64,000 bases of DNA from Vicinamibacterales bacterium (GTDB lineage Bacteria > Acidobacteriota > Vicinamibacteria > Vicinamibacterales > JAMQPK01): the NCBI GenBank assembly GCA_963850295.1, contig CAWKKU010000001.1, positions 29,993 to 93,992 on the forward strand, read 5' to 3'. The notes below the pieces were generated by a model. It worked only from the letters and a program-made list of their open reading frames with translations, was not told the origin of the DNA and ran no database searches. Positions 47,998-60,450 of this stretch are shown piece by piece. The translations under genes and the position numbers were made by a program. Each line of letters starts with the position of its first letter. Positions within the stretch are counted from its first letter, which is position 1.

Positions 47998-48043
47998 GGG
48001 GATTAGGGATTGGGAATTGGCGATTCGAGATTAGCGATTAGCC
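47998..48043. repeat. Degenerate (NGGGATT) heptamer repeat overlapping the SdpI stop
   Basis: ggggatt agggatt gggaatt ggcgatt cgagatt agcgatt agcc. Confidence 0.75.
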
Positions 48044-48651
48044 TGAGTGGTGCCCGCGCGGAGATGTTCCGCTGCCAGCAGAAATGCCGCTGCGATTGAC
48101 GCAGGGCCGAGCACCATCTCGACGCGCTGTTTCGACAGAAACAAGCCGCCGGCGACGAACACCACCCCAAGCGCTACCGCGAAGTAACCGGCGACTCGAT
48201 GCGTCTTGATCCAGACGTCGCGGTCCGCGAGCGTCCGCCGCGTACGAATTCCGAATGCCAGGTTCGGCCGCGTTCGAGGCAGAAGATTGCCGACGTAGAT
48301 TGCCACAAGCCCGAACATCACGATCGGGACGCGAGCGAGCCCCGAGCTCTGCGCGAGGGGTCCGGCCAGCGCCGCCACGATCGACGCGTGCAGTGCGACG
48401 ACGAACACGATGACTCCAAACAGGATTCGGGTGTAGGTCGTCGCAAGATCGCCGTTACCGGCGGACGACCTGTCCTTTGCAAGGATGAGCGTCGCGGACA
48501 CATAGATGACGGCAGCCGTGGAGGGCAGGAGCACGGCGATGAGCGCGGTTTCGAGGAGCGTCAGCGTTCCGGCCAGCCGGACGGCTCCGGCGATGCCGAT
48601 TCCATACCCCACCGCGATGAGCGCCCATATCCGCCACTGGGTTCCGGTCAT
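48031..48651 (-). CDS. SdpI family immunity-like membrane protein
   Basis: GNLLPRTRPNLAFGIRTRRTLADRDVWIKTHR; downstream of an ArsR regulator. Confidence 0.8.
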   Translation of the reverse strand: MTGTQWRIWALIAVGYGIGIAGAVRLAGTLTLLETALIAVLLPSTAAVIYVSATLILAKDRSSAGNGDLATTYTRILFGVIVFVVALHASIVAALAGPLAQSSGLARVPIVMFGLVAIYVGNLLPRTRPNLAFGIRTRRTLADRDVWIKTHRVAGYFAVALGVVFVAGGLFLSKQRVEMVLGPASIAAAFLLAAEHLRAGTTQANR

Positions 48652-48652
48652 G

Positions 48653-48973
48653 TCACGCCTCACTTTCGCGCGTTCGCTGCGCCCGGTTGCGCCGTTTCTC
48701 CCGAGGATTCCTGGTCCACGACATCAAGTGCTGGATCAGCTCGTCGAGGACCGATGTGTTCAATTCATAGCGGATTTCCTGGCCGTTTCGCTCCGCGCTC
48801 ACCAGCCCCGCCTCGCGAAGGACGGCCAGGTGCCGCGAGATGGTCGGCCAGCTTGACTCGAAATGAGCCGCAATCTGCCCCGATGTCCTCGCGCCGTTGC
48901 GCAGGAGCGCCAAAATCTCACGCCGCGTCTCGTCGGCCAGCGCCCGGAAGCTCGCGTTCCGCGCCGTCGTCAT
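48653..48973 (-). CDS. ArsR/SdpR family transcriptional repressor
   Basis: FRALADETRREIL, WPTISRHLAVLREAGLV, YELNTSVL. Confidence 0.9.
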   Translation of the reverse strand: MTTARNASFRALADETRREILALLRNGARTSGQIAAHFESSWPTISRHLAVLREAGLVSAERNGQEIRYELNTSVLDELIQHLMSWTRNPREKRRNRAQRTRESEA

Positions 48974-49010
48974 AATTAGATAATTAGCACATTAGCTAAC
49001 TAATAGTAAA
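48974..49010. promoter_or_regulatory. AT-rich probable autoregulatory operator/promoter of the SdpR-like gene
   Basis: aattagataattagcacattagctaactaat: repeated ATTAG/CTAAT units abutting the ATG, with no Shine-Dalgarno sequence. Confidence 0.5.
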
Positions 49011-49052
49011 GCAAAAACGGTCGGGAGCATCGCGATCGGGCGAAACCGAGGG

Positions 49053-49463
49053 TTACTTCGTCACCTGCGTCGTCATCGGCTCGGCCTTGGGAAACACAAA
49101 GGTTGCGATCACTCTGGCCGTAACGTTCCCCTTGTTCAGGCCCTCATGAACCTTACCGGGCTCCACCGAAAACGTCTCGCCGGTTTTGTACGTCACTGAC
49201 GGCAGCCCTTCATAATCCATGGTGACCGCGCCTTCTTTGACATAGGCCACAAGCGTCCCCGAATGCATGTGTCGTCCTTCTCGCGCTCCGGCCGGAAGTT
49301 CAACCAGCACCATCGTCGCCACATACCCGCCGGGCATCGGAAGGTCCTGCGTGCGCAGGGGCGTTCGCGTGACCGTTGGCCCCGCGGGTAGCTGCTGCGC
49401 AGAAGCCGAGATGACGGCCACTACGAAGCCAATAAACGCAAGTTTTAACGCATTCCTAAACAT
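49053..49463 (-). CDS. Exported cupin domain protein
   Basis: Signal peptide; GRHMHSG, EPGKVHEG. Confidence 0.85.
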   Translation of the reverse strand: MFRNALKLAFIGFVVAVISASAQQLPAGPTVTRTPLRTQDLPMPGGYVATMVLVELPAGAREGRHMHSGTLVAYVKEGAVTMDYEGLPSVTYKTGETFSVEPGKVHEGLNKGNVTARVIATFVFPKAEPMTTQVTK

Positions 49464-49521
49464 CGCTTCCTCTCTCAGTGACTATTGGCTATCGGCGAAT
49501 GGCTACCGGCTGATGTGGCGC

Positions 49522-50427
49522 CTACATTTTCAGGAGGCGCGTCCCATTCTCCCAGACAATCTTTCGGAACACCTCAGGCGCGGCGAGCTTTTTCAGCTCG
49601 GTCAACGTGGCCCGGGCGACGCACCGGCCCGTGGCGCCGCCGCGCCCGTCGGGGCACGGGCAATCGCTTCCGAACATCAGCTTGTTCTGATGCCGCGCGA
49701 GGAAACCCGCGGCGAACTCCGGATCGCGAGTGAGAAAGTTGTTGCCGGAGTTCGCCGACATATCGGCGTAGAGGTTGGGATAATCGCCCAGCAGTCTGTC
49801 GGTCACTCCGCCAGGGACGATGCGGCCTTTGGGATATGCCGTGTCTTCGGCGTAATCGGCGCTGACGTTCGCCCAGAACGCATCCGCGTGCCCGATGAAC
49901 GTCGTCTTGGGAAACGCCTTCAGCATCGCGTCGAACTTCTTGAGACCTGTGTTGTAGGTTCCCGGGCTTCCCGGCTGATTGACTTCCTGGAAGTGGATGG
50001 TGATGGGGACGTTCAGCTCCGACGCCAGTGTATACACGCGCTGCATCTCTGGCCCCGCGGCCGCGACCTGCGACTTGATTTCACCAAATCCAATGGCGCC
50101 GTTCTGCACTGCAGCACGCAGTCGATCGACCGCGTCGGGCTGGGTCACGCCGATGCTCGCGAATCTGGCGAAACGCCCCGGACTCGCGGCGGCGATCTGC
50201 TTCGCGCGATCTTCGGCGGCCACTTGCGCGAGGAGGATCGCTTTCGTCACCCCCGAGCCGTCCAGATGGACGGCGTTTCCATCGGGCGTATTGCGAAGAT
50301 GAAGATGGATGTCGAGTACCGGCGAGCCCCATTCACTGGATGCTGAGCTTTGCGCTCCAGCGCGCGACGCCGCCGCCACAACCGCCACCGCGTGTAGAAA
50401 TTCCCGGCGTCCTATCGGCATGCTCAT
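49522..50427 (-). CDS. Tat-exported amidohydrolase family protein
   Basis: GRREFL Tat motif; DIHLH, GEIK, IHF, IGHAD, MFGSDC. Confidence 0.88.
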   Translation of the reverse strand: MSMPIGRREFLHAVAVVAAASRAGAQSSASSEWGSPVLDIHLHLRNTPDGNAVHLDGSGVTKAILLAQVAAEDRAKQIAAASPGRFARFASIGVTQPDAVDRLRAAVQNGAIGFGEIKSQVAAAGPEMQRVYTLASELNVPITIHFQEVNQPGSPGTYNTGLKKFDAMLKAFPKTTFIGHADAFWANVSADYAEDTAYPKGRIVPGGVTDRLLGDYPNLYADMSANSGNNFLTRDPEFAAGFLARHQNKLMFGSDCPCPDGRGGATGRCVARATLTELKKLAAPEVFRKIVWENGTRLLKM

Positions 50428-50436
50428 ATCACCCCC

Positions 50437-50485
50437 GAACCACGAAGACAGAAAGCCAAAACCACGAAGACACGAAGCCACGAAC
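50437..50485. repeat. CACGAAGA-type repeat patch
   Basis: accacgaagacagaaag...accacgaagacacgaagccacgaac; same unit at 36741-36790 and 60335-60450. Confidence 0.7.
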
Positions 50486-50499
50486 TAATGGGCTTTATT

Positions 50500-51621
50500 C
50501 TAGCCTTTGGTTCGTCGTCGAAACGGCCATATCAACTGGGAACCCCAGCGCGGCGGCACGGCTCTGCGATCGATGAGGCCGTAGGCGGCCGGCCACCTGT
50601 CCGGGAGGTAGTACGTCCCGAACAACAGGTCCCACACGGGCGTGTGAACCGCGAAGTTCTTGTCGATCGCCTCACGTTCGGCGCTGTGATGCCAGTGATG
50701 AAAGGCGGGTGTCGCAAACAGCCGGCGGATCGGCCGGAATTCCCAGCGGACATTGGCGTGGATGAAGGTCGCCTGTGCCGCCACGAGGAATACATAAACC
50801 ATCAGCGCCCGTTCGGAGAAGCCGAGCACGAAAATCGGGACGTAGGTCAGCCCCCGGGTGGCGATGACGTCGACGAGATGCAGGCGCGAGCCGGCCAGCC
50901 AGTCCATGTCTTCGACGGAGTGATGAATGGCGTGAAACGGCCAGAGAAACGGCACCGCATGAAAGGTGCGGTGGACCCAGTACTGCGTGAAATCGGCGAC
51001 CAGGAGCAGCGCCGGCACCTGGGCCACGAGCGGCATCGACCCGATCGCGTTGCTGATCTGCGCCACGCGCGCCCAGCCAAACAGAATCAGCGCCGGCCCG
51101 AGCGTGAGAATTGCCAGCAGTTCGATCAGCAACGAGTTGACGAAAAAATATGTGAGATCGAGCGTCCAGTGCCGGCGGAACAGTTGCTGTTCCCGCTTGC
51201 GCGCAAAGATGCGCTCGAGCGGAATGAACACCGCGGAGTACAAGAGCAGATTCAGAATGAAAAAATCGAGACCGAGCCACGACCGTCCGGTCATGTCGCC
51301 GCCGACCGGCGCCTGCGATCCTCCGAGCAGCGCCGCGGCAAGAGTAAAACCGATGCCGGTAAGCGCCAGCATCTTGTTCGCCCGGAGAAAAGCACTGGCG
51401 CTGCCGAGAAGAAACGACGTCACGAGCGTCACGTGAATGATCGCGCGCAGGTAGCCCTCCGCGTAGAGAGGCCGAAGCTCCGCGTACGTCAGGTACTGTG
51501 GAAAGTGGAACGCGAGAACGGCACCAAACCCCGCGATGCCCAGCAGTGCCGATAAGAGACCGCTGATGAATCCATACCCGAACGACGTCGGCTCCGTCGT
51601 CTCGAGCGAAAGATTACGCAC
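50500..51621 (-). CDS. Sterol desaturase/fatty-acid hydroxylase superfamily protein
   Basis: His boxes YWVHRTFH, HAIHHS, FIHAN, FHHWHH; multi-TM N-terminal extension. Confidence 0.9.
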   Translation of the reverse strand: MRNLSLETTEPTSFGYGFISGLLSALLGIAGFGAVLAFHFPQYLTYAELRPLYAEGYLRAIIHVTLVTSFLLGSASAFLRANKMLALTGIGFTLAAALLGGSQAPVGGDMTGRSWLGLDFFILNLLLYSAVFIPLERIFARKREQQLFRRHWTLDLTYFFVNSLLIELLAILTLGPALILFGWARVAQISNAIGSMPLVAQVPALLLVADFTQYWVHRTFHAVPFLWPFHAIHHSVEDMDWLAGSRLHLVDVIATRGLTYVPIFVLGFSERALMVYVFLVAAQATFIHANVRWEFRPIRRLFATPAFHHWHHSAEREAIDKNFAVHTPVWDLLFGTYYLPDRWPAAYGLIDRRAVPPRWGSQLIWPFRRRTKG

Positions 51622-52312
51622 TCCCTACCTCATACCGCACGTCATCCTCGCGCGGCCGCGCGCCAGTGATACGCCTGACGATCCATTCAGCGCGCCGGAA
51701 GAATCCGATCGCCTCGAGCGGGCGATTGCACCATCCTGTCGTAATACAGTAGCTCGCGTCGTAGGGACGCGCATGATGTGCGGCGTGTCCGGAGCGTCCC
51801 AGAATCAACCCGCAGTCCTGCAGCAATCGCACCACGGCTGGTGGTGACGGCATGTGCGCCCACTGGTGGATTTGATTGGTCAGCATGCCCACGCCGCAGA
51901 ACCCGAGCCCGAACATGGCGACAACGGCGTCACGGCTCGTGGTGAGCGGAAGCGACACGAGAACGGCGAGAACACAGGCGCCGATGAAGGCCACATCGCC
52001 ATTGACGTCGATGAAACTGCGGCGAAGAAAATCGTCGGGATTCACGTGATGGACGCGGAACGGAACCAGCAGCCGATGACCGACCAGCGGCAGATCGTCG
52101 CTCCCCCACGTATCGGCCGACCAGTGCACGAGGCCCGAACCGAAGTCCGCGGCGAGGATACCCAAGCCACAGGCAAACGGCGCCCACCAGGGCGTCAGAT
52201 CGGCGCGAAGTCCGGTACGAAGCGCGAGAACAACGACCAGCGCAGCCGCCGCGGCAATCGACGCGATCGAAAACAGCCGCTGGGATCGCGTCAGTTCGTA
52301 ATGGACCTGCAT
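51614..52312 (-). CDS. CarF/TMEM189(PEDS1)/FAD4-like lipid desaturase
   Basis: ADFGSGLVHWSADTWG, FRVHHVNP, TNQIHQWAH, HAAHHARPYDASYCITTGWCN. Confidence 0.88.
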   Translation of the reverse strand: MQVHYELTRSQRLFSIASIAAAAALVVVLALRTGLRADLTPWWAPFACGLGILAADFGSGLVHWSADTWGSDDLPLVGHRLLVPFRVHHVNPDDFLRRSFIDVNGDVAFIGACVLAVLVSLPLTTSRDAVVAMFGLGFCGVGMLTNQIHQWAHMPSPPAVVRLLQDCGLILGRSGHAAHHARPYDASYCITTGWCNRPLEAIGFFRRAEWIVRRITGARPREDDVRYEVGSA

Positions 52313-52372
52313 AGGTCTCTTATCGTCCGGTGAGCTTGTCCGAATATAATGCGGGAAACTGGGGGTTTTCGC

Positions 52373-53677
52373 ATGAAGCGGCAGTTGGGTCTCCTCGTCT
52401 GGGTCGCGCTCTTACCGGTCTCGCTCGGGGCTCAAACACCCGCCGCCAGCGCGGGATCCGAAGGCGAAGAGCGCATGCCATGGCTGGTCACCGAAGAAGG
52501 CAAGCCGATCGAGACGCGGCCGACCGAAAAGCCCGACAACGTGCCAGCGTTTCCCGGGCAGACTCGCGCTCCGTTTCGCGCGACGGCACCTTACAAGGTG
52601 ACGACGCTCATCGACAACCTCGAGGTGGCGTGGAGCCTGGCGTTTCTGCCGAGCGGCAACATCATCCTCACCGAGCGGCTGCCGGGCAGGCTGCGCATCC
52701 TTCACACCAACGGCACGGTGTCGCGGCCGCTGTCCGGCGTGACGTCGTCGCCTCGCCTGGCTCGAAAGATATCGGACTGCTCGACATGGTGCTCGATCCC
52801 AACTTCGCCGGAACCAGCAAATCTTTTTCAGCTTCTTCAGTTACATCGACGGCACGAACACCAACACGTGCATCGCGCGCGCGCGGCTCGACGAGAAAAA
52901 GCTCAAGGTCACCGACGTCAAAGTGATCTTCCGCGCGCTGCCGATGATGCCGTCGAAGCGGCTCGGCGCGAAAACCGGCGGACGCATGGTGTTCGACAGG
53001 GCGGGCAATCTGCTGATGCCGCTCGGCGATCGATCTGATTCTCCGCCATGGGATGTCGCGCAGAAGATGGACACCCACCTCGGCAAGATCATCCGCATCG
53101 CGCCTGACGGCACTGTGCCGGCAGACAACCCGTTTGTCGGGCAAGCCCGGCGTGCTTCCCGAGATCTGGGCGACGGCACGCGCAGTGTCGAAGGGCTCGC
53201 CTACGATCCGCGCACCGGCAAACTGTGGCAGAACGATCACGGGCCGCGCGGCGGCGACGAGCTGAACATCATCGAGAAGGGCAAGAACTACGGGTGGCCG
53301 ATCGTCGCGCGAGGCATCGATTATCCCGGCGCGCCGATCGGCGTGACGACGAAGGACGGAATGGAAGAGCCCGTCTACTTCTGGGATCCGGTGATCGGGC
53401 CGTCGGGCCTCGCCTTCTACACCGGCAATCTGTTTCCGCAATGGAAAAACAGCATGTTCGTCGGCGGCCTGCGCGGCGCGCATGCTCTCGCGGCTCGAGA
53501 TCGTCAACGACAAAGTGGTTGGCGGAAGAGGCGCTGCTCGCCGATCTGCGCGCGCGCATCCGCGACGTGCGCGTCGGGCCCGACGGCGCGCTGTATGTGT
53601 TCACCGACAGCGGCACGCCGTCGATGAGCGCGAATACTCCGCCAACCAGCAAGCTGTTGAAGCTCACGCCGAAGTAA
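52373..53677 (+). CDS. PQQ-dependent soluble sugar dehydrogenase (GSDH/YliI-like), several frameshifts
   Basis: Signal peptide; WSLAFLP, GLLDMVLDPNF, GKIIRIAPDGTVPADNPF, HGPRGGDELN, NYGWP, RIRDVRVGPDG, spread over four ORFs. Confidence 0.85.
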
Positions 53678-53684
53678 CGGGCGA

Positions 53685-54576
53685 GTGCCCATTTACCTCG
53701 CTCCTGCCGCTCGTCGGCGCCGTCGTCTATGTCGTTGCCGCGCTGTTATTGAAGCGCGCCGCCAACCTGGGCGCCGACGTCTGGCGCACGACGCGCATCA
53801 TCAATTACACGGCCGCGGCTGGCGTCAACGCCGTTGTGGCTGTTCGGCGGAACGATTCCTTCAGCTTCGTTGTGGTGGCAGCCTGCGCTCGGAGGTCTGC
53901 TTTTCCTCTCCGGCCAGTTACTGACGTTGCTTGCCTTGAACATCGGAGACGTCTCGGTCGCCACGCCGGTGCTGGGTGTGAAAATCCTGCTGGTTGCTCT
54001 GCTGACCGCGGTTCTGATCGGCGACCCGATCGGCGCTCGGCTCTGGACCGCCGCGGCTCTCAGCAGTGTCGCCATCGCGCTGCTCAACTTCAATCGCGAG
54101 CACACCCACGGCCGCGTCGGCACCACTATCATCCTGGCAGGGCTCGGCGCCCCGCGTATGCGCTCTTCGACGTGCTCGTTCAGAAGTGGTCCCCTGTCTG
54201 GGGAACCGGACGTTTTCTGCCGATCGCGATGGGGTGCGGGGCGGTATATTCACTGGCGCTGCGCCCCTACGGCGCAGCGCACAAGGCTCCCGAGGAGCAA
54301 GCGGGAACCGGCTACCGGTGGTGGCTCGCCGGGGGAGCAGCGTGCTTCGCGCTGCAGGGGCTGATGTTCATCACACCGATTTCGATCTACGGGAACGCCA
54401 CGACCGCCAACGTCCTGTACAGTTCCCGTGGGCTCTGGAGCGTCGTCGCCGTCTGGGCGGTCGGTCACTGGTTCTCGAATCGCGAGCAGCACCTCGGCGC
54501 GCGCGTGCTCGTGTGGCGCTTGCTTGGCGCGGTGCTCTTGATGATTGCGCTGCTGATTGTGCTCCTCAACCGGTAA
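53685..54576 (+). CDS. DMT/EamA family transporter (frameshifted near 53820 and 54150)
   Basis: Hydrophobic segments over ORFs 53685.., 53834.. and 53482..: GDVSVATPVLGVK, ANVLYSSRGLWSV. Confidence 0.75.
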
Positions 54577-54587
54577 AGGAGAAGGCG

Positions 54588-55481
54588 ATGACTCAGCTGT
54601 CCCGGCGGGAATTCGCGGCGCTGGCCGGCGCGACGTTTGCCGCACCACTGGCGGCCAGCCAGAAAACATCGGGCTCGGCGATGACGGCGCAAGATGTCGT
54701 TGACCGCATCCGTATGAACATCGGCGTCGAATGGAAGCCCGACTCCATCGACGGCATCAAGGCCGGCCAGCCGTCCGCGATCGCCAAAGGTATCGTCACG
54801 ACGTCGATGGCGACGCTCGACGTGCTTCAGCGCGCCGTCAAGGCCGGCTCGAACCTCGTGGTAACAAGTCTGCCGACTTTTTATTCGAGAACCGACGCCA
54901 GAAATCCGCCGGCCGGACGGCCGCCATCGGATCGTATCTTCACCGCGAAGAACGATTTCATTACCAAACACGACATCGTGATCTTTCGCTTGAGCGACCA
55001 CTGGCGCCTGCGAACGCCCGATCCGCTCGCGCAGGGCATGGCGCAGGCTTTGGGGTGGACGAAATATCAACAGGCCGCCGATGCCTCACGGTTCGACGTG
55101 CCGGAACTGACGCTGGAAACGCTGGCGGGCAACGTGAAGAGACGTTTTCAATCCGCGGGCGGCGTCCGAGTGATCGGCGATCCCCGGATACGCGTGCGGC
55201 GCGTCGGGCTGCTGCCCGGGACGACGCCGATCCATGCGTCGCTCAAGATGCTTCCTGAGGTAGATGTCATCGTCGCAGGCGAAGTGCGCGAATGGGAGTC
55301 GGTCGAATACGTGCGCGACAAGGCGTTTGCCGGTGAGAGAAAAGGGCTCATCCTGGTGGGCCGCGTCGTTTCCGAAGAGCCCGGCATGCAGGTGTGCGCG
55401 AACTGGCTGAAAACGCTCGTGCCCGAAGTGCCGGTACGCCACATCGCCGCAGGCGATCCGTATTGGGGGCCAACTCGATGA
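54588..55481 (+). CDS. NIF3-like protein with Tat signal and degenerate metal ligands
   Basis: MTQLSRREFAAL; DGIKAGQP, GIVTTSMATLDVLQRA; SLPTF, LSDHW and GRVVSEE where the paralog has His. Confidence 0.82.
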   Translation: MTQLSRREFAALAGATFAAPLAASQKTSGSAMTAQDVVDRIRMNIGVEWKPDSIDGIKAGQPSAIAKGIVTTSMATLDVLQRAVKAGSNLVVTSLPTFYSRTDARNPPAGRPPSDRIFTAKNDFITKHDIVIFRLSDHWRLRTPDPLAQGMAQALGWTKYQQAADASRFDVPELTLETLAGNVKRRFQSAGGVRVIGDPRIRVRRVGLLPGTTPIHASLKMLPEVDVIVAGEVREWESVEYVRDKAFAGERKGLILVGRVVSEEPGMQVCANWLKTLVPEVPVRHIAAGDPYWGPTR

Positions 55482-56269
55482 AAGCCGAAGAAATCATCGA
55501 CCGCATCAAGAAAAATCTCGGCGTCCCGTGGCGCGATGCCACGTATCGCGACACCTACAAGGCCGGGGGCCCGGAGACCGAGGTCACGGGAATTGCGACG
55601 ACAGCGTTCGTAACGCTCGAGGTGATCCAGCGAGCCGCCGCGGCCGGACTCAACATGATCATCCCGCACGAAGTCACGTTCTGGAACGATCGCGACGACG
55701 GGGCGGTCGTCGCGCAGGATCCGTTGTATGCGGCCAAAGTCGCCCTCATGCGAAAGCACAACGTGGTGGTGTTCCGCATGCACGATCACATGCACGCGCA
55801 GCGGCCCGACTTCACCTATGTGGGGTCCGCGCGCCTGATTGGCCTGGAGAGCAAATACGAAACCGCGCCGAATTCACACCGCTTCGTCGTTCCCGAAACC
55901 ACGCTCGGGGCACTCGCCGCCGACGTGAAGAAGCGAAGCGGCGCGCGCGCGCTGAGAGTGGTCGGCAACCCAAACGCGAGAGTCAGCCGCATCCAGCTTG
56001 GCGTCGGGTACGCCACACCTCCGATCGACAACGCGGAGGTCGATGTCGTCATCAGCGGCGAGCAGCAGGAAACCGACACGGGGCTCGACAGTCCTGAATA
56101 CGTCATGGATGCCGTGACCCTCGGCATCGCCAAAGGCTGGATCATGCTCGGCCATGTCATCTCCGAAGAAGCGGGGATGCTCGAGATGGCCGGCTGGATT
56201 AAAGGGTTCGTTCCCGAATTGCCGGTTCAGTTCGTCAAAGCGGAAGAACCATTCTGGGTGCCTGATTAG
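55478..56269 (+). CDS. NIF3-like dinuclear metal-centre protein without a signal peptide
   Basis: ATGA overlap with the upstream gene; DTYKAG, HEVTFW, MHDHMH, GHVISEEAGM. Confidence 0.85.
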   Translation: MKAEEIIDRIKKNLGVPWRDATYRDTYKAGGPETEVTGIATTAFVTLEVIQRAAAAGLNMIIPHEVTFWNDRDDGAVVAQDPLYAAKVALMRKHNVVVFRMHDHMHAQRPDFTYVGSARLIGLESKYETAPNSHRFVVPETTLGALAADVKKRSGARALRVVGNPNARVSRIQLGVGYATPPIDNAEVDVVISGEQQETDTGLDSPEYVMDAVTLGIAKGWIMLGHVISEEAGMLEMAGWIKGFVPELPVQFVKAEEPFWVPD

Positions 56270-56270
56270 T

Positions 56271-58223
56271 TCAACGCCGGCGCTGGCCCCAGAAAACGAA
56301 CGTGCCTCGATTGGTCGACGTGACGATATCGACGGTGCCGTCTTTATTGAGATCGACGGCGGTGACGTGCGAGCCGACGCCCGACTTGTTGTGAATCAAC
56401 TCCGGCACGAACTCGGCTCCCCCCGCGGCCTTCGGGTTGCGCACGGTGCGGAACCAATAGAGCACCGCCTCGCCATGCGGATCCGGATCGACCCAGCTCT
56501 CCTGATGTGAAAACAGGCGCTTGCCGGTGACGAAGTCGGGAATCTTATCGCCGTCGATGTCGGCCATCACCGCGCCGTGCATCTCCGAAATCGTGACGCC
56601 GCCGGCATTCCTGGTCGAATAATCGTCCATGATCATGTGCCGGTCGAACATGATGTTTCCCGCCGCATCTCGCTTCTGCTGGAACCAGGCAAGCCCGAAT
56701 CCATGGGCGTTCAAGCCTCCCACCACGTCGTTCAGTCCGTCACCGTTCACGTCGTAGACGACCATCTCGCTGCCGCCTGCTCCTTCGGCGCGGCCCCATC
56801 GGCCGAACGCGTATGGGTGGTACGCCCACACACCGGAGCGTGGCCCGGCGGCCGGCTGCTCCCACCAGCCCGCCGCCTGAAGAACGTCGAGACGTCCATC
56901 GCCGTTGATATCGCCGGCGCCCAAACCATGGCCGTGTACGGGTCCGCGGTCCGAGATTGCGTGCGTCGGCCACGGCGCGGTTGGATTCGCGGCATCGGGC
57001 CAACCAAACATCAACGTTCCGCCGACACCTCCGGTAGCGAAAATGATCTCCGGTTTTCCGTCGCCATCGACGTCGCGCATCAGCGCGAGCTCGCTGGTGA
57101 TTTGCGGCAGTACGGGATGTTTTGCCCATCTGCGCTTCTCACCTTTCGGGTTCACGTAAAGGTGCATCGGGCGCGACTCGCCGGCGAGCACATCCGTCCA
57201 TCCATCACCGGTGAAATCGTAGGTGTAGTCGATCATCGTCCGCGCGAAGCTGATGCTCGGCGCTTGAGCTGGCGCGGCGTCGATCTCCCCGCGCGTGGTA
57301 AACGCGGGGCCCAGGTAGTAGTACGGACCCGCGACGATGTCGAGCACGCCGTCGTTGTTGAAATCGCCTCCCGCTGCGCCCCACGACAGGTAGAACTCAT
57401 CGACGCGTTGCATGCGGAACCGCGACGAGATCTGCTCCGGCGGGTTCGGACGCATGTGCAGATCCTTGAAGGAGACGTCCTTGAACCGGACCTCTCCGGT
57501 ACCAGCCGCATGCAGCGCGATGGGCCCGTATCCATCCCTCTCGTCGGCTGCGCCCGGAATGAAGTCGTAAGACTGATTCAGGATCGGGCGGATGACGTTC
57601 GCGTCCATCGTGATGCTCAGCAGATTCCAGTCATCCTGGCGTATGCCCGATGGCGGCGGAATCAGCTCGGGCAACGGCGTCGGCAGTGTCACGGGACCGC
57701 CGCCCCGACCCGCGCCTACCATCGAAAATCCGCCGGGGCCGGCTCCGGCGGGCGGCGGATTCGGATTGGGTACCGGTGGCAGCGCAACACGCACAAATGG
57801 CGGCGACGGCCTGAGTGCGTCGCGCGCCGTCTCCCGGCCTTCCGCATCGAGCGTCAACCGATATGTCTTGAGATCGTCGAGCGACACGTAAATGCCCGTC
57901 ATACCCGCGCCGGTCTTCTGCATGCGAAACAGCACGCCTGCGTTACACGGCGCAGCACATCTGAAGCGCGTAAAAAAGTTGACGTCCTGATACGACCTGT
58001 CGAGCACGAGCCACCCGCCCTGGCTGCCGGCGCGCGGACGGCCGACGATTTCGCCGCCCTGCGCCTGCCAATCCGCGCTTCCGAGCGTCGTCCAGCCAGT
58101 CAGGCTCGAGCCCGTAAAGGTCGTATCTGGTTTGAATTCGTTTGCAGGACCTTGTGCCGCCGGCAAAGCCGTCAGGACCAAGACGAGGGAGACTGCTGCG
58201 AGTGGAAGCCAATTGCGTGACAT
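56271..58223 (-). CDS. Secreted DUF1080-like plus FG-GAP repeat protein
   Basis: Signal peptide; FTGSSLTGW...EVRFKDV; repeats GDFNNDGVLDIV, DVDGDGKPEI, GDINGDGRLDV, DVNGDGLNDV, DIDGDKIPDF, DLNKDGTVDI. Confidence 0.85.
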   Translation of the reverse strand: MSRNWLPLAAVSLVLVLTALPAAQGPANEFKPDTTFTGSSLTGWTTLGSADWQAQGGEIVGRPRAGSQGGWLVLDRSYQDVNFFTRFRCAAPCNAGVLFRMQKTGAGMTGIYVSLDDLKTYRLTLDAEGRETARDALRPSPPFVRVALPPVPNPNPPPAGAGPGGFSMVGAGRGGGPVTLPTPLPELIPPPSGIRQDDWNLLSITMDANVIRPILNQSYDFIPGAADERDGYGPIALHAAGTGEVRFKDVSFKDLHMRPNPPEQISSRFRMQRVDEFYLSWGAAGGDFNNDGVLDIVAGPYYYLGPAFTTRGEIDAAPAQAPSISFARTMIDYTYDFTGDGWTDVLAGESRPMHLYVNPKGEKRRWAKHPVLPQITSELALMRDVDGDGKPEIIFATGGVGGTLMFGWPDAANPTAPWPTHAISDRGPVHGHGLGAGDINGDGRLDVLQAAGWWEQPAAGPRSGVWAYHPYAFGRWGRAEGAGGSEMVVYDVNGDGLNDVVGGLNAHGFGLAWFQQKRDAAGNIMFDRHMIMDDYSTRNAGGVTISEMHGAVMADIDGDKIPDFVTGKRLFSHQESWVDPDPHGEAVLYWFRTVRNPKAAGGAEFVPELIHNKSGVGSHVTAVDLNKDGTVDIVTSTNRGTFVFWGQRRR

Positions 58224-58313
58224 GTGCAGATACTAAGCCCAGAATGGATAAAACGTCATGTGGGATACACCGGGCTGTTCTTTCCTGGGAGCACTACGTG
58301 AGATTATCTTGAG

Positions 58314-58736
58314 ATGAATGACTCCGCGAAAGAACAGTCGCTCGTCAACTGGACCCAGCTGATCTACGGGCTTCACGCGTTCAGCCTGTTGACCGGCATC
58401 CTCGGTGCGGCGACGGTCGTCGGCGCGTTCCTCACCGGCTGGCCGTCGATCATCGCCGTGATTCTCAACTACGTGAAACGGGGTGACGTCCGCGGCTCCT
58501 GGCTCGAGTCGCACTTCCGCTGGCAGATCCGCACGTTCTGGTACGGCCTGCTGTGGATTTCGCTATGCGTCCTGTTCATCATCATGACGTTCGGCATCGG
58601 CATCCTGATCGCGTGGCTGCCGATAGGGCTGGTGGGAGTCTGGTTCATTTACCGCATCGTCCGCGGCTGGCTGGCACTGAACGATCGTCAACCGATGTAC
58701 GCGCAGGGAACGACGGTAGTCCTGCCCCCCGCCTAG
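58314..58736 (+). CDS. DUF4870 family membrane protein
   Basis: IIAVILNYVKR, SHFRWQIRTFW, YRIVRGW. Confidence 0.85.
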   Translation: MNDSAKEQSLVNWTQLIYGLHAFSLLTGILGAATVVGAFLTGWPSIIAVILNYVKRGDVRGSWLESHFRWQIRTFWYGLLWISLCVLFIIMTFGIGILIAWLPIGLVGVWFIYRIVRGWLALNDRQPMYAQGTTVVLPPA

Positions 58737-59341
58737 CGGCGCCGCTCCGGAACGATCGTCTCCCCTCGTGCCAGCATGGCGACGAGCTCCGCGATTTTCT
58801 TCGCGCGTCCCGCCGCCGTCTTCATGTGGTTCGTCCGGAAAGCCATGACGAACATGTTCTGCTTACCGAGCGTGCGGTAGGTCTTGCGTGCTTGGGGGTT
58901 GGCTTCGATCGCTTCGCGCAGGTCGTCCGGGATCATCGCTTCGCTGGCGGTCCTCATCGGCGCATACGCCGCGTCCCACCGTCCGTCTTCCTTGGCGGCA
59001 TCCACCTGGCGCTGGCCGTGCGGCGTCATTCGTCCGGCGGCCGTCAACCTGGCCACGTGGTCGCGGTTGATCTGACTCCACAAACTGCGCGGGCGGCGGG
59101 GCGAATAGCGCTGCAGAAATGAACGCTCGTCGAACGACTTGCGGAGGCCGTCGATCCAGCCCCAGCACAGCGCCACGTCGAGCGCCTGGGCAGCAGTCAC
59201 GGTCGGTAGCCCCGAATCCTTCTTGTGAATCTTCAGCCAGATCTCCGCCTCGCGGGTGTGGTTGGCCTTCATCCACGCCTCGAAGGCGCTCTCCGAGCGA
59301 AAGCTCTTGATCTTTCTGGGATTGGGAATGACCGGCGCCAT
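58733..59341 (-). CDS. YdeI/OmpD-associated family protein
   Basis: ALDVALCWGWIDG, YSPRRPRSLWSQIN, IPDDLREAI; ATG at 59341. Confidence 0.88.
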   Translation of the reverse strand: MAPVIPNPRKIKSFRSESAFEAWMKANHTREAEIWLKIHKKDSGLPTVTAAQALDVALCWGWIDGLRKSFDERSFLQRYSPRRPRSLWSQINRDHVARLTAAGRMTPHGQRQVDAAKEDGRWDAAYAPMRTASEAMIPDDLREAIEANPQARKTYRTLGKQNMFVMAFRTNHMKTAAGRAKKIAELVAMLARGETIVPERRR

Positions 59342-59393
59342 CGAATCGCCGCTACTATAAACGACACTCGCGGCGGTTCGATGGCTCCTTGAT

Positions 59394-60149
59394 TCAAAAC
59401 CGGAATCGCACACCCGCGACAAAGGGCATCGTCCATCGCGAGCTCTTGTCGTTGATGGTTTCCAGGCCCGTGCCAATCAGGTCGTCGACTTCGGACATCC
59501 CCGTCACGAAACGCAGGCCGAGCTGCCCGAAATATCCGAAGTTTCGTCCAGATTGCACGAGTAGACCGACGTTGATGCCCGCGGTGAAGGCAGACGTCTG
59601 ATCGTAGAAGTCGTTGTTTTGCGTCGCCAGATTGGCCCCGGGCGCTATCAGTCCGACATCGATCTTGTCGACGAAGCCGATGCCAAGCGTCCCTTCGCCA
59701 TACGCCAGGAGCCTTGGCTTCAGCTCCGCGTATCGGCGCAGGCCGAAGTCGAGGCTGAGCGTCTGATAGTCCGAAAATTGCCCGTAGAGATTCGACACGC
59801 CGATGTCTCCCATCGGCACGATGAAGTCCGCGTCGAGCGACTGAAACGCGAATGTTCCCTTGATCTCGGTCGTGTCGTTCAACATGTAGCCGCCACCGAA
59901 CCGTAGATGCAGGCCAGTTCCGTAGACCTCATCGAACGAGTTCTTGGTGACGACGACTACCTGGTTGTTGATCTGACCAACGCCGCTGGAGTTGATGTTG
60001 CCGCTGATGCCGTTGTCGAATCCAACGCCGAATTCGATGCTCCACGGCGAATCGGCCGCGTTAGATTGTGCGAACGCGGGCGATGCCGCGGCCAACACCG
60101 TCAGGAGCACTCCGGCACAAAAAATTCTTTGACTTATCCGTCGCATCAT
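59394..60149 (-). CDS. Outer-membrane beta-barrel protein
   Basis: Signal peptide (SPAFA-Q), amphipathic strands, C-terminal GVRFRF; RBS GGAGG. Confidence 0.8.
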   Translation of the reverse strand: MMRRISQRIFCAGVLLTVLAAASPAFAQSNAADSPWSIEFGVGFDNGISGNINSSGVGQINNQVVVVTKNSFDEVYGTGLHLRFGGGYMLNDTTEIKGTFAFQSLDADFIVPMGDIGVSNLYGQFSDYQTLSLDFGLRRYAELKPRLLAYGEGTLGIGFVDKIDVGLIAPGANLATQNNDFYDQTSAFTAGINVGLLVQSGRNFGYFGQLGLRFVTGMSEVDDLIGTGLETINDKSSRWTMPFVAGVRFRF

Positions 60150-60334
60150 TTCCTCCCGGTGCACGCCATGCTGAAGAGCGTCACGGTTGACGGCCACGTC
60201 GACGTGCCGCGCGGTGTGTTCGCTCACCGTATGTCGTGGGACGTGACGAGCCGTTGTAAGCGGGCCGCAAAACATGCTCAGGAAAATCGACGCAGGATGC
60301 GGACCGCTGCGGGTAGATGCATGGGACGCACCAA

Positions 60335-60450
60335 CCACGAAGGGCGCGAACTGCACGACGCCACGAAGACACGAAGACACGAAGAAGCTCACGGTCCAAA
60401 CACTCGATGACGCGCCGGCCTCGAAGACGCGAAGAACGACGAAGAAGCAC
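60335..60450. repeat. CACGAAGA-type repeat patch between divergent genes
   Basis: ccacgaagacacgaagacacgaagaag ... tcgaagacgcgaagaacgacgaagaagcacg. Confidence 0.7.

Follow-up and report, generated by a model that had tools for sequence, protein, structure and literature searches.

Can a metal-binding enzyme devoid of an export signal be carried out of the cytoplasm by a paralog that has lost its own metal site? This question is raised by two adjacent genes of the NIF3/DUF34 family from a Vicinamibacterales bacterium, which lie in the 64,000-nucleotide stretch of DNA analysed here and called the window (contig CAWKKU010000001.1 of assembly GCA_963850295.1; all positions are those of the window, unless a locus is named). 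The first gene of the pair (gene 1) encodes a protein with a presumed twin-arginine translocation (Tat) signal and a remodelled, probably metal-free site, whereas the second (gene 2) encodes a paralog with a full ligand set and no signal. We consider it likely that the two proteins are the protomers of an obligate NIF3 heteromer, which would form in the cytoplasm and then cross the membrane as a Tat hitch-hiker, at the cost of one signal per pair. NIF3/DUF34 proteins are ubiquitous and have been known by their structures since 2003, and they have no agreed function; according to our proposal, a branch of this family that is widespread in the environment, each of the two genes having more than 2000 database relatives, would function beyond the cytoplasm in the form of a two-subunit complex of defined composition.

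Structure and family of the two genes

Gene 1 (54588..55481, + strand; 297 amino acids; TGA stop at 55479-55481) is preceded by the Shine-Dalgarno sequence AAGGAG (54576..54581, +), read 6 nucleotides before its ATG. Gene 2 (55478..56269, +; 263 amino acids; TAG stop at 56267-56269) starts on the stop of gene 1 through an ATGA overlap (55478..55481, +), which suggests that the translation of the two genes is coupled. The two proteins share 40% identity over 272 aligned columns, residue 32 of gene 1 falling on residue 1 of gene 2, and they are thus the overlapping paralogs that had been noticed in an earlier, sequence-only reading of the window. Both match the NIF3/DUF34 profile PF01784 (36.9 bits for gene 1 and 47.2 bits for gene 2; cut-off 23.4), and both score far under the cut-off (130.55 bits) of TIGR00486, the NCBIfam equivalog YbgI_SA1388 (16.4 and 25.1 bits, respectively). 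On sequence grounds, we place the pair outside the YbgI/SA1388 equivalog, in the XynX-like NIF3 subfamily. No gene other than gene 1 and gene 2 matches PF01784 in the window's genome (4.2 Mb, 16 contigs), and the PF01784 search found no canonical YbgI-type NIF3 in this genome, which is 84% complete.

A complete ligand set without a signal

The six ligand positions of gene 2, all read on the + strand, are complete, namely H64 and E65 (codons at 55667-55672), H102 (55781-55783), H106 (55793-55795), H226 (56153-56155) and E230 (56165-56167). In an alignment with SA1388 and YbgI, H64-E65 fall on the canonical His-His, H102/H106 on the canonical His/Asp, and H226/E230 on the canonical His and bridging Glu, i.e. 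gene 2 differs from these two proteins by a Glu at the second His and by a His at the Asp. This variant, yet complete, predicted ligand set is common to XynX from Geobacillus proteiniphilus/stearothermophilus T-6 (PDB 9g9u, released 2025-08-06), the closest solved relative of gene 2, which has the same signature (HE, HD.WH and GH..SEE). The AlphaFold2 model of gene 2, obtained with a predicted local distance difference test (pLDDT) value of 95.5, resembles 9g9u with a template modelling (TM) score of 0.86-0.89, and it also matches the NIF3-fold structures 2nyd, 2fyw, 1nmo, 2gx8, HcgD and 2yyb; the match between gene 2 and 9g9u has E values of 1e-35 to 1e-38 by sequence and 1e-78 by profile.

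In a set made of gene 2 and its 120 best matches (76-94% identity; n=121), H64, E65, H102, H106 and E230 are invariant (121/121) and H226 is present in 120/121 sequences. These counts agree with the earlier claim that gene 2 keeps its ligands and begins directly at the mature domain. All 120 matches are 260-268 amino acids long, and none of the 121 sequences shows RR within its first 20 residues; thus the set holds no sign of gene 2 orthologs with a Tat signal of their own, with which the carrier/cargo reading would be at odds. An upstream start of gene 2 (GTG at 55394) was considered and rejected: the corresponding extension has RRRR and no hydrophobic stretch, and it is another frame of the conserved C-terminus of gene 1, all loci being alike in this respect.

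A twin-arginine motif next to a remodelled metal site

Compared with gene 2, gene 1 has an N-terminal extension of 31 residues (MTQLSRREFAALAGATFAAPLAASQKTSGSA), the first 30 of which form the presumed twin-arginine signal peptide (54588..54677, +), called from the motif in the translation. This motif, S5-R6-R7-E8-F9, continues with AALAGATFAAPLAA and is followed by a hydrophobic region (residues 10-23) that is uncharged and rich in Ala and Gly. The six ligand positions of gene 1 are occupied by S94 and L95 (codons at 54867-54872), S136 (54993-54995), R140 (55005-55007), R259 (55362-55364), all four stretches of codons having been checked on the + strand, and E263; five of the six ligands are therefore replaced, and only E263 is kept. 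All the motifs quoted in the sequence-only reading were found, namely SRREFAAL, SLPTF versus HEVTF, LSDHWR versus MHDHMH, and GRVVSEE versus GHVISEE (gene 1 versus gene 2).

The replacements are conserved. In gene 1 and its 120 best matches (n=121), the first position of site 1 is A, S or G in 121/121 sequences and never His, and the second is Q in 96, H in 17, L in 7 and E in 1, the Glu being replaced in 120/121. At site 2, the His of the first position is changed to S in 119/121 sequences, and the second position is R in 110 and K in 11; the His position of site 3 is R in 121/121. The [ST]RRxF motif is present in 120/121 sequences, and gene 1 orthologs (63-92% identity) are less well conserved than those of gene 2. 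The statement that gene 1 carries a Tat signal while its metal-binding positions are replaced is thus borne out (motif in 120/121, replacements in 119-121/121). It is worth noting that the gene 1 site is not merely stripped of its ligands, in that Arg/Lys residues have been installed there invariantly. Hence, the earlier description of gene 1 as an inactive carrier stands for the loss of the ligands, and not for the passivity that it implies: owing to the invariant Arg/Lys, gene 1 is probably more than a passive carrier, and its remodelled pocket suggests a role of its own.

The conservation of the replacements also bears on the trivial explanation that gene 1 is a decaying duplicate, or was created by sequencing errors, and is devoid of function. 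Nine single-nucleotide indels in the two genes just upstream of the pair (see below) speak for this explanation, to which we nevertheless give practically no credence, in view of the following points. First, a comparison of the pair with the related locus L003 revealed a compensating pair of indels in the signal-peptide region and one 24-nucleotide indel at the junction, and no frame-breaking single-nucleotide indel. Second, the replaced residues are kept in 119-121/121 orthologs, down to 63% identity; error or decay is ruled out because the replacement residues are themselves constrained, and the earlier judgement that sequencing error is unlikely holds. Third, more than 2000 relatives were found in the database at E ≤ 0.001.

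The tandem in other genomes

A scan of one genome per species for relatives of gene 1 yielded 33 loci (L003-L035), which originate from Vicinamibacterales, Acidobacteriaceae, one "Cybelea" metagenome-assembled genome (MAG) and one MAG labelled Bifidobacteriaceae. Two adjacent NIF3 genes occur in 33/33 loci, of which 32 are of type A, i.e. have the order and type of the window (gene 1 then gene 2), and one (L029) is of a mirror type; seven loci could be read only in part, L005 being interrupted, and L026, L027, L028, L032, L034 and L035 consisting of frameshifted MAG sequence. In the latter six loci, the NIF3 genes are split by the frameshifts, so that intact pairs are, if anything, undercounted in assemblies of this kind. 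The MAG with the unexpected label ("uncultured Bifidobacteriaceae"; L005, contig CAYHHH010000137.1) has a first pair gene 65% identical to gene 1, and its contig is likely mis-binned or mislabelled.

Wherever the 5' end of gene 1 is intact, SRRxF or TRRxF is present, and the start of gene 2 is never more than a few residues away from the mature domain; a signal could not be accommodated 5' of gene 2, because the frame upstream of it overlaps the C-terminus of gene 1. The junction was scanned in 41 loci, of which 35 could be mapped (L005, L028, L029, L032, L034 and L035 were skipped). In 33/35, an in-frame start of gene 2 overlaps the stop of gene 1, by 4 nucleotides (27 loci) or 1 nucleotide (6 loci), and the two genes are separated by 8 nucleotides in L025 and 0 nucleotides in L048.

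Similarly, a sample of 401 genomes of the phylum contained members of the subfamily (E ≤ 1e-10) in 20 genomes, and 20 stretches were examined. Pairs occur in six genomes, including that of the window, and two of these genomes (G279 and G383) have two pairs each. The seven further pairs are all of type A, their first gene having an RR signal, degenerate ligands and Gly-Arg at site 3, and their second gene being signal-less with the HE/H..H/H..E ligands. Together, the survey (32/33 loci of type A, with 7 of the 33 read in part, and 7/7 further pairs) bears out the expectation that tandem NIF3 genes share out signal and ligands: no tandem locus that could be read departs from this complementarity, and these loci span two orders of Acidobacteriota.

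Reversed pairs, fusions and single-gene relatives

The mirror locus L029 (5920-7855 of that locus) starts with a gene that has both a Tat signal (ISRREL) and intact ligands; in its paralog, which comes second, no signal can be recognised and the sites are degenerate (LE, H..P and GE). No further pair of this type was found among the 401 genomes of the phylum with the query used. A metagenome scan with the protein P0322 as a query yielded six more loci (L071-L076), in which a signal-less dead gene (motifs CREAPSY, FDNWDAR and GEEASEEPG) is followed, after 2 nucleotides, by a Tat-bearing (ISRRRF) intact paralog (L071: 2501-4268 of that locus); L073-L075 have identical scores and are probably from one organism. 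These reversed pairs appear to be independent arrangements in which a dead/active pair has one signal, in either gene order.

Dead and active domains also occur in one polypeptide. P0393 (584 amino acids; cluster of 16 sequences) consists of an SRRRF signal, a gene-1-type domain (sites FE, H..L and Gly-Arg), a 22-residue Pro/Ala-rich linker and an intact domain that is 47% identical to gene 2, while P0376 (575 amino acids) has a dead then an intact domain, and no signal. These two fusions support the proposal that dead and active domains associate. In addition, P0258 and P0397 comprise an intact, signal-bearing NIF3 domain fused to serine-hydrolase-like domains (beta-lactamase/esterase-like or alpha/beta-hydrolase), which is a hint of ester or lactone chemistry. 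Three other long matches (P0394-P0396) were rejected as fusions and are not counted, for they look by eye like frameshift-merged sequences, with out-of-frame Arg/Pro-rich stretches.

What do the relatives without a partner look like? In the 12 genomes of the phylum sample with a single gene, all six core ligands and an N-terminal signal are present in 12/12, the signals being, by eye, Sec-like in six (L036, L039, L040, L041, L043 and L044), Tat-like in five (L038, L042, L045, L046 and L047) and ambiguous in one (L037); L055 is a frameshifted single. It would thus appear that the ligand-intact enzyme is normally exported, and that the signal is missing only in the copies that stand behind a Tat-bearing dead paralog. 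Consequently, the view of NIF3 proteins as cytoplasmic, taken up in the sequence-only reading, is not general in the XynX-like subfamily. Furthermore, the signals linked to pairs are all of the twin-arginine type, whereas those of single genes are often Sec-like, and such Tat-only signals fit the export of a pre-assembled complex.

We also built a tree of the subfamily. When 1.84 billion cluster representatives were searched in full with gene 2 (HMMER), 1612 matched at E ≤ 0.001, of which 146 at E ≤ 1e-30. The best 150 and the two queries gave 91 near-full-length rows with no gap in the ligand columns (61 fragments being dropped), and the addition of 26 proteins from the loci brought the tree to 117 rows. 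Heuristic labels sort these rows into 37 with no signal and intact ligands, 29 Tat/intact, 16 Sec/intact, 17 Tat/lost, 11 with no signal and lost ligands, and 7 unclear or other, with the proviso that the labels of the locus rows took in the upstream open frame, so that some gene-2-type rows are wrongly labelled "Tat" or "none?". In this quick IQ-TREE analysis, the 17 rows of gene-1-type proteins group together (support 82; there are starred subgroups), and so do the 13 rows of gene-2-type proteins (support 94). The gene-2-type group adjoins 12 rows of intact singles that bear a signal (11 Tat and 1 Sec; a group starred at 96), to which it is joined at 88. This placement fits a descent of gene 2 from an exported enzyme through loss of its signal.

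Prediction and weighing of the proposed heteromer

The association of the two proteins was modelled in a 1:1 ratio, using residues 31-297 of gene 1 (alignment A1) and the whole of gene 2 (alignment A2). The interface score ipSAE of the gene 1-gene 2 pair was 0.95, 0.96 and 0.95 in three runs, and 0.00 for three unrelated-protein controls. The mark used for this score is reached by 116/157 solved complexes and 2/215 mismatched pairs, a calibration that is rough here, the alignments being our own. At least 92% of the contacts are common to the runs, the partner pLDDT is at least 93, and that of gene 1 within the complex is 92-93. The contacts of highest confidence are reciprocal and C-terminal (gene 1 292-295 with gene 2 161-162, and gene 2 259-261 with gene 1 194-196), and two of them (gene 1 293 with gene 2 161, and gene 1 195 with gene 2 260) match the strand exchange of the SA1388 dimer, as described in PMC1779786. 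The predicted interface also takes in residues adjacent to the sites, namely 95-96, 99-102 and 258-260 of gene 1, and 65-66, 69-71 and 225-227 of gene 2.

From the observed gene structure, paralogy, signal/ligand complementarity and its conservation, Tat genes and dead/active fusions, we infer a physical association (as predicted by the model), a co-export, a metal loading, a dimer or trimer-of-dimers stoichiometry and a chemistry, which could be linked as follows. First, the overlapping stop and start would couple the translation of gene 1 and gene 2. Second, the gene 2 protein would pair in the cytoplasm with that of gene 1, at the canonical NIF3 dimer interface with C-terminal strand exchange. 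Third, the gene 1 protein, with its dinuclear site lost and invariant Arg/Lys at two ligand positions, would supply the twin-arginine signal. Fourth, the folded complex would cross the membrane by hitch-hiking. Fifth, it would act in the periplasm, where a small molecule derived from a sugar is its most likely substrate; PQQ (pyrroloquinoline quinone) sugar/alcohol dehydrogenases, ThuA and 3-keto-disaccharide-hydrolase-like proteins recur beside the pair (see below). The hetero-oligomer of carrier and cargo put forward in the sequence-only reading is thus supported by the absence of a signal on gene 2 (0/121), the conserved tandem, the modelled complex (0.95 versus 0.00) and P0393; its export and its chemistry stand as inferences.

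Several points weigh against this proposal. The Tat signal of gene 1 is presumed from its motif, with no support from hidden Markov models (HMMs): full-length gene 1 has no match to the Pfam TAT_signal HMM above threshold, and no Tat profile HMM reached threshold with the 45-residue N-termini of five carriers, the nearest results being sub-threshold matches (E ~0.05) of two gene 1 orthologs, as 45-residue N-termini, to the UCR_Fe-S_N Tat signal. The score of the complex may be a memory of the solved NIF3 homodimers (9g9u, 1nmo and 2nyd), and it has no bearing on the preference for a hetero- or a homo-oligomer, only the hetero pair having been modelled; the structure prediction separates the 1:1 hetero pair from unrelated controls (0.95 against 0.00), and not hetero from homo. 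The pair loci are from related lineages and the gene 1 group looks like one origin, so that they represent few independent events and not 40. The tree is quick, unrooted and of moderate support (20/113 inner branches starred, 48 drawn open). The fusions P0393 and P0376 are seen in protein records alone, as database proteins with no locus. The Sec-like signals on single genes indicate that the enzyme does not need to be loaded with metal in the cytoplasm. Finally, the dehydrogenase gene adjoining the pair is broken in this assembly.

Alternatively, the two proteins could work in separate compartments, gene 1 being exported alone, as a non-catalytic periplasmic binding or regulatory protein, and gene 2 being a cytoplasmic homo-oligomeric enzyme, with no more than a common regulation. 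Signal-less relatives with intact ligands do exist (37/117 tree rows, which also weighs against the heteromer), XynX has no N-terminal extension in its deposited chain, the conserved and remodelled pocket of gene 1 (invariant R259, and R/K140) could have a function of its own, and the predicted complex may express family likeness only. We nevertheless deem this explanation rather unlikely, for it leaves aside the strict tandem with overlapping stop and start in 33/35 mappable loci; the pair-linked signals, which are all of the Tat type as opposed to the often Sec-like signals of singles; the mirror pairs and the dead-active fusions, one of which has a single N-terminal Tat signal; the position of the gene-2 group next to exported intact singles in the tree; and the own signal of the 12/12 single-gene relatives examined.

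Another explanation retains the heteromer and questions its fate, in that the N-terminus of gene 1 could be an uncleaved membrane anchor, or the complex could stay in the cytoplasm with a functionless RR. It draws on the missing Tat HMM match of gene 1 and on an ambiguous cleavage site (possibly after A23 or A30), and it appears quite improbable to us for three reasons. First, S/T-R-R-x-F is kept in 120/121 orthologs. Second, the host has a Tat system, as indicated by the presence in the window's genome of TatC (220.6 bits) and two TatA/B (74.2 and 54.8 bits), and the neighbours of the pair are periplasmic or secreted enzymes. Third, cleavable Tat signals typically have a short hydrophobic region rich in Ala and Gly, and that of gene 1 is of this kind.

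Comparison with known systems

Tat hitch-hiking is itself a classical mechanism, which is said to have been described for hydrogenase 2 of E. coli by Rodrigue et al. in 1999 (cited in PMC13673990). As in hydrogenase 2, where co-export of the folded proteins has been demonstrated, a subunit with a Tat signal and a signal-less, metal-containing partner are encoded by adjacent genes; in the NIF3 pair, co-export is proposed from the data above. Unlike in hydrogenase 2, whose subunits are unrelated and have cofactors each, the presumed carrier and its cargo are here paralogs, and the carrier no longer has a metal site. In the Streptomyces tyrosinase system MelC1/MelC2, a helper with a Tat signal also escorts a signal-less metalloenzyme; MelC1 is an unrelated copper chaperone and not a dead paralog. 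The NIF3 pair would thus represent a new form of a known mechanism, with a pseudo-enzyme paralog as the carrier, in a family of unassigned function. Such a pseudo-enzyme carrying its own paralogous cargo would be an unusual example for the Tat field, and the mirror and fused versions would serve as natural controls.

Canonical NIF3/DUF34 proteins, such as E. coli YbgI (1nmo) and Staphylococcus aureus SA1388 (2nyd and 3lnl), have the fold and Pfam family of the pair, a dinuclear site at equivalent positions and, as in our model, a dimer with C-terminal strand exchange (PMC1779786). They differ from the dead/active pair in being homo-hexamers of identical, ligand-complete subunits. XynX also differs from the pair, in that it is encoded by a single gene, which adjoins a xylanase gene, and its deposited chain lacks a signal peptide. 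In the literature searched, the one role reported for XynX is the negative regulation of xynA expression (a table of PMC8469502 citing Shulami 2014, and a figure legend of PMC5053077), and a literature search found no paper citing 9G9U. Concerning Tat signals, one sentence in section 3.8 of Reed et al. 2021 (PMC8469502) states that many bacterial DUF34 proteins carry TAT signals, and its main text has nothing on tandem paralogs, heteromers, pseudo-enzymes, ligand loss or signal-less partners. Within the literature searched, which mostly leaves out subscription journals, this article is alone in linking NIF3 and Tat signals, and no description of a NIF3 pair or of a periplasmic NIF3 complex was found.

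Genomic neighbourhood

Upstream of the pair, on the same strand, lie a PQQ-dependent glucose/sorbosone dehydrogenase gene (GSDH, PF07995; 52349..53677, +) and a gene for an EamA-like membrane protein, resembling drug/metabolite transporters (DMT; 53680..54576, +), while a gene for a secreted protein with 3-keto-disaccharide hydrolase (DUF1080) and FG-GAP domains (56271..58223, -) converges on gene 2. The stops of the two convergent genes (TAG at 56267-56269, and 56271-56273 on the - strand) are 1 nucleotide apart, leaving no room for a terminator. GSDH is split over several frames, its profile positions 1-41, 106-285 and 277-326 being matched in three different frames, and the membrane protein gene is frameshifted as well, with a weak family assignment: its intact L003 ortholog scores 24.2 bits with EamA, under the cut-off of 28.2. 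As compared with L003 (~88% DNA identity), the stretch containing these two genes (52341-54567) has the nine single-nucleotide indels mentioned above. In the following stretch, which includes the pair (54586-60436), indels within genes are multiples of three or compensating, with a single exception at 58115, close to the 5' end of the FG-GAP gene. The breaks reflect either a recent decay of the two genes into pseudogenes or a local fault of the assembly, two causes that are not separable, since nucleotide identity to L003 is the same in the broken stretch (88.6%) and in the intact ones (87.6-89.9%). Thus, the context described earlier stands for the presence of GSDH, a membrane protein and the DUF1080/FG-GAP neighbour, and it requires correction in that the GSDH and transporter genes are frameshifted and the DMT match is sub-threshold.

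The two nearest open reading frames on each side of the 33 loci (124 frames) were scanned for recurrent neighbours. A PQQ quinohaemoprotein dehydrogenase (PF01011 with cytochrome c) is encoded upstream on the same strand in L010, L015, L017, L024, L027 and L028, directly so except in L027, where ThuA stands between. As in the window, GSDH adjoins the pair in L003 and L004, and L026 has a PQQ_2 propeller; ThuA is found in L026 and L027, enolase-superfamily genes in L018, L023 and L030, and FG-GAP proteins in L003 and L011, the other neighbours being diverse. In the phylum sample, a PQQ dehydrogenase gene and then a ThuA gene precede the pair in L049, and a PQQ-cytochrome c gene lies in the vicinity of the pair in L051. 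In all, a PQQ enzyme neighbours the pair in about 11/40 loci; the arrangements number at least four, and these enzymes come from two unrelated families. Knowing that a genome contains 12-49 PF01011 match stretches and 3-9 GSDH stretches, chance adjacency is roughly estimated at a few per cent per locus. This link between PQQ dehydrogenases and the pair is suggestive only, and it would fit a periplasmic sugar or keto-sugar chemistry, as supposed in the sequence-only reading; it is likewise compatible with the metal-chaperone idea put forward by Reed et al. (PMC8469502).

A bolder version of our proposal may be put forward, tentatively and as a rather unlikely one. Obligate dead/active heterodimers would have arisen repeatedly in the XynX-like subfamily, encoded by two genes (whichever comes first) or by one fused gene, as a rule with one Tat signal per pair, and the Arg-remodelled pseudo-site would be part of a composite site that handles a substrate, or a metal or cofactor, in the service of periplasmic PQQ sugar dehydrogenases. 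Candidate roles of such a composite site are to act on the lactone or keto-sugar products of these dehydrogenases, or to load their metal. If true, this composite-site reading would provide the first concrete biochemical handle on the NIF3 family, and the neighbourhood of PQQ dehydrogenases, ThuA and 3-keto-sugar proteins narrows the search for a substrate.

Farther upstream in the window, a fatty-acid hydroxylase gene (50500-51621) and a lipid desaturase gene (51614-52312) stand between an amidohydrolase gene and GSDH. They have no counterpart at that place in L003 (window 48013-52341 versus L003 2257-3700), which indicates an insertion or a deletion between close relatives. The amidohydrolase itself (PF04909; 49522-50481, -) has a twin-arginine-like N-terminus, GRREFLHAVAVVAAASRAGAQ.

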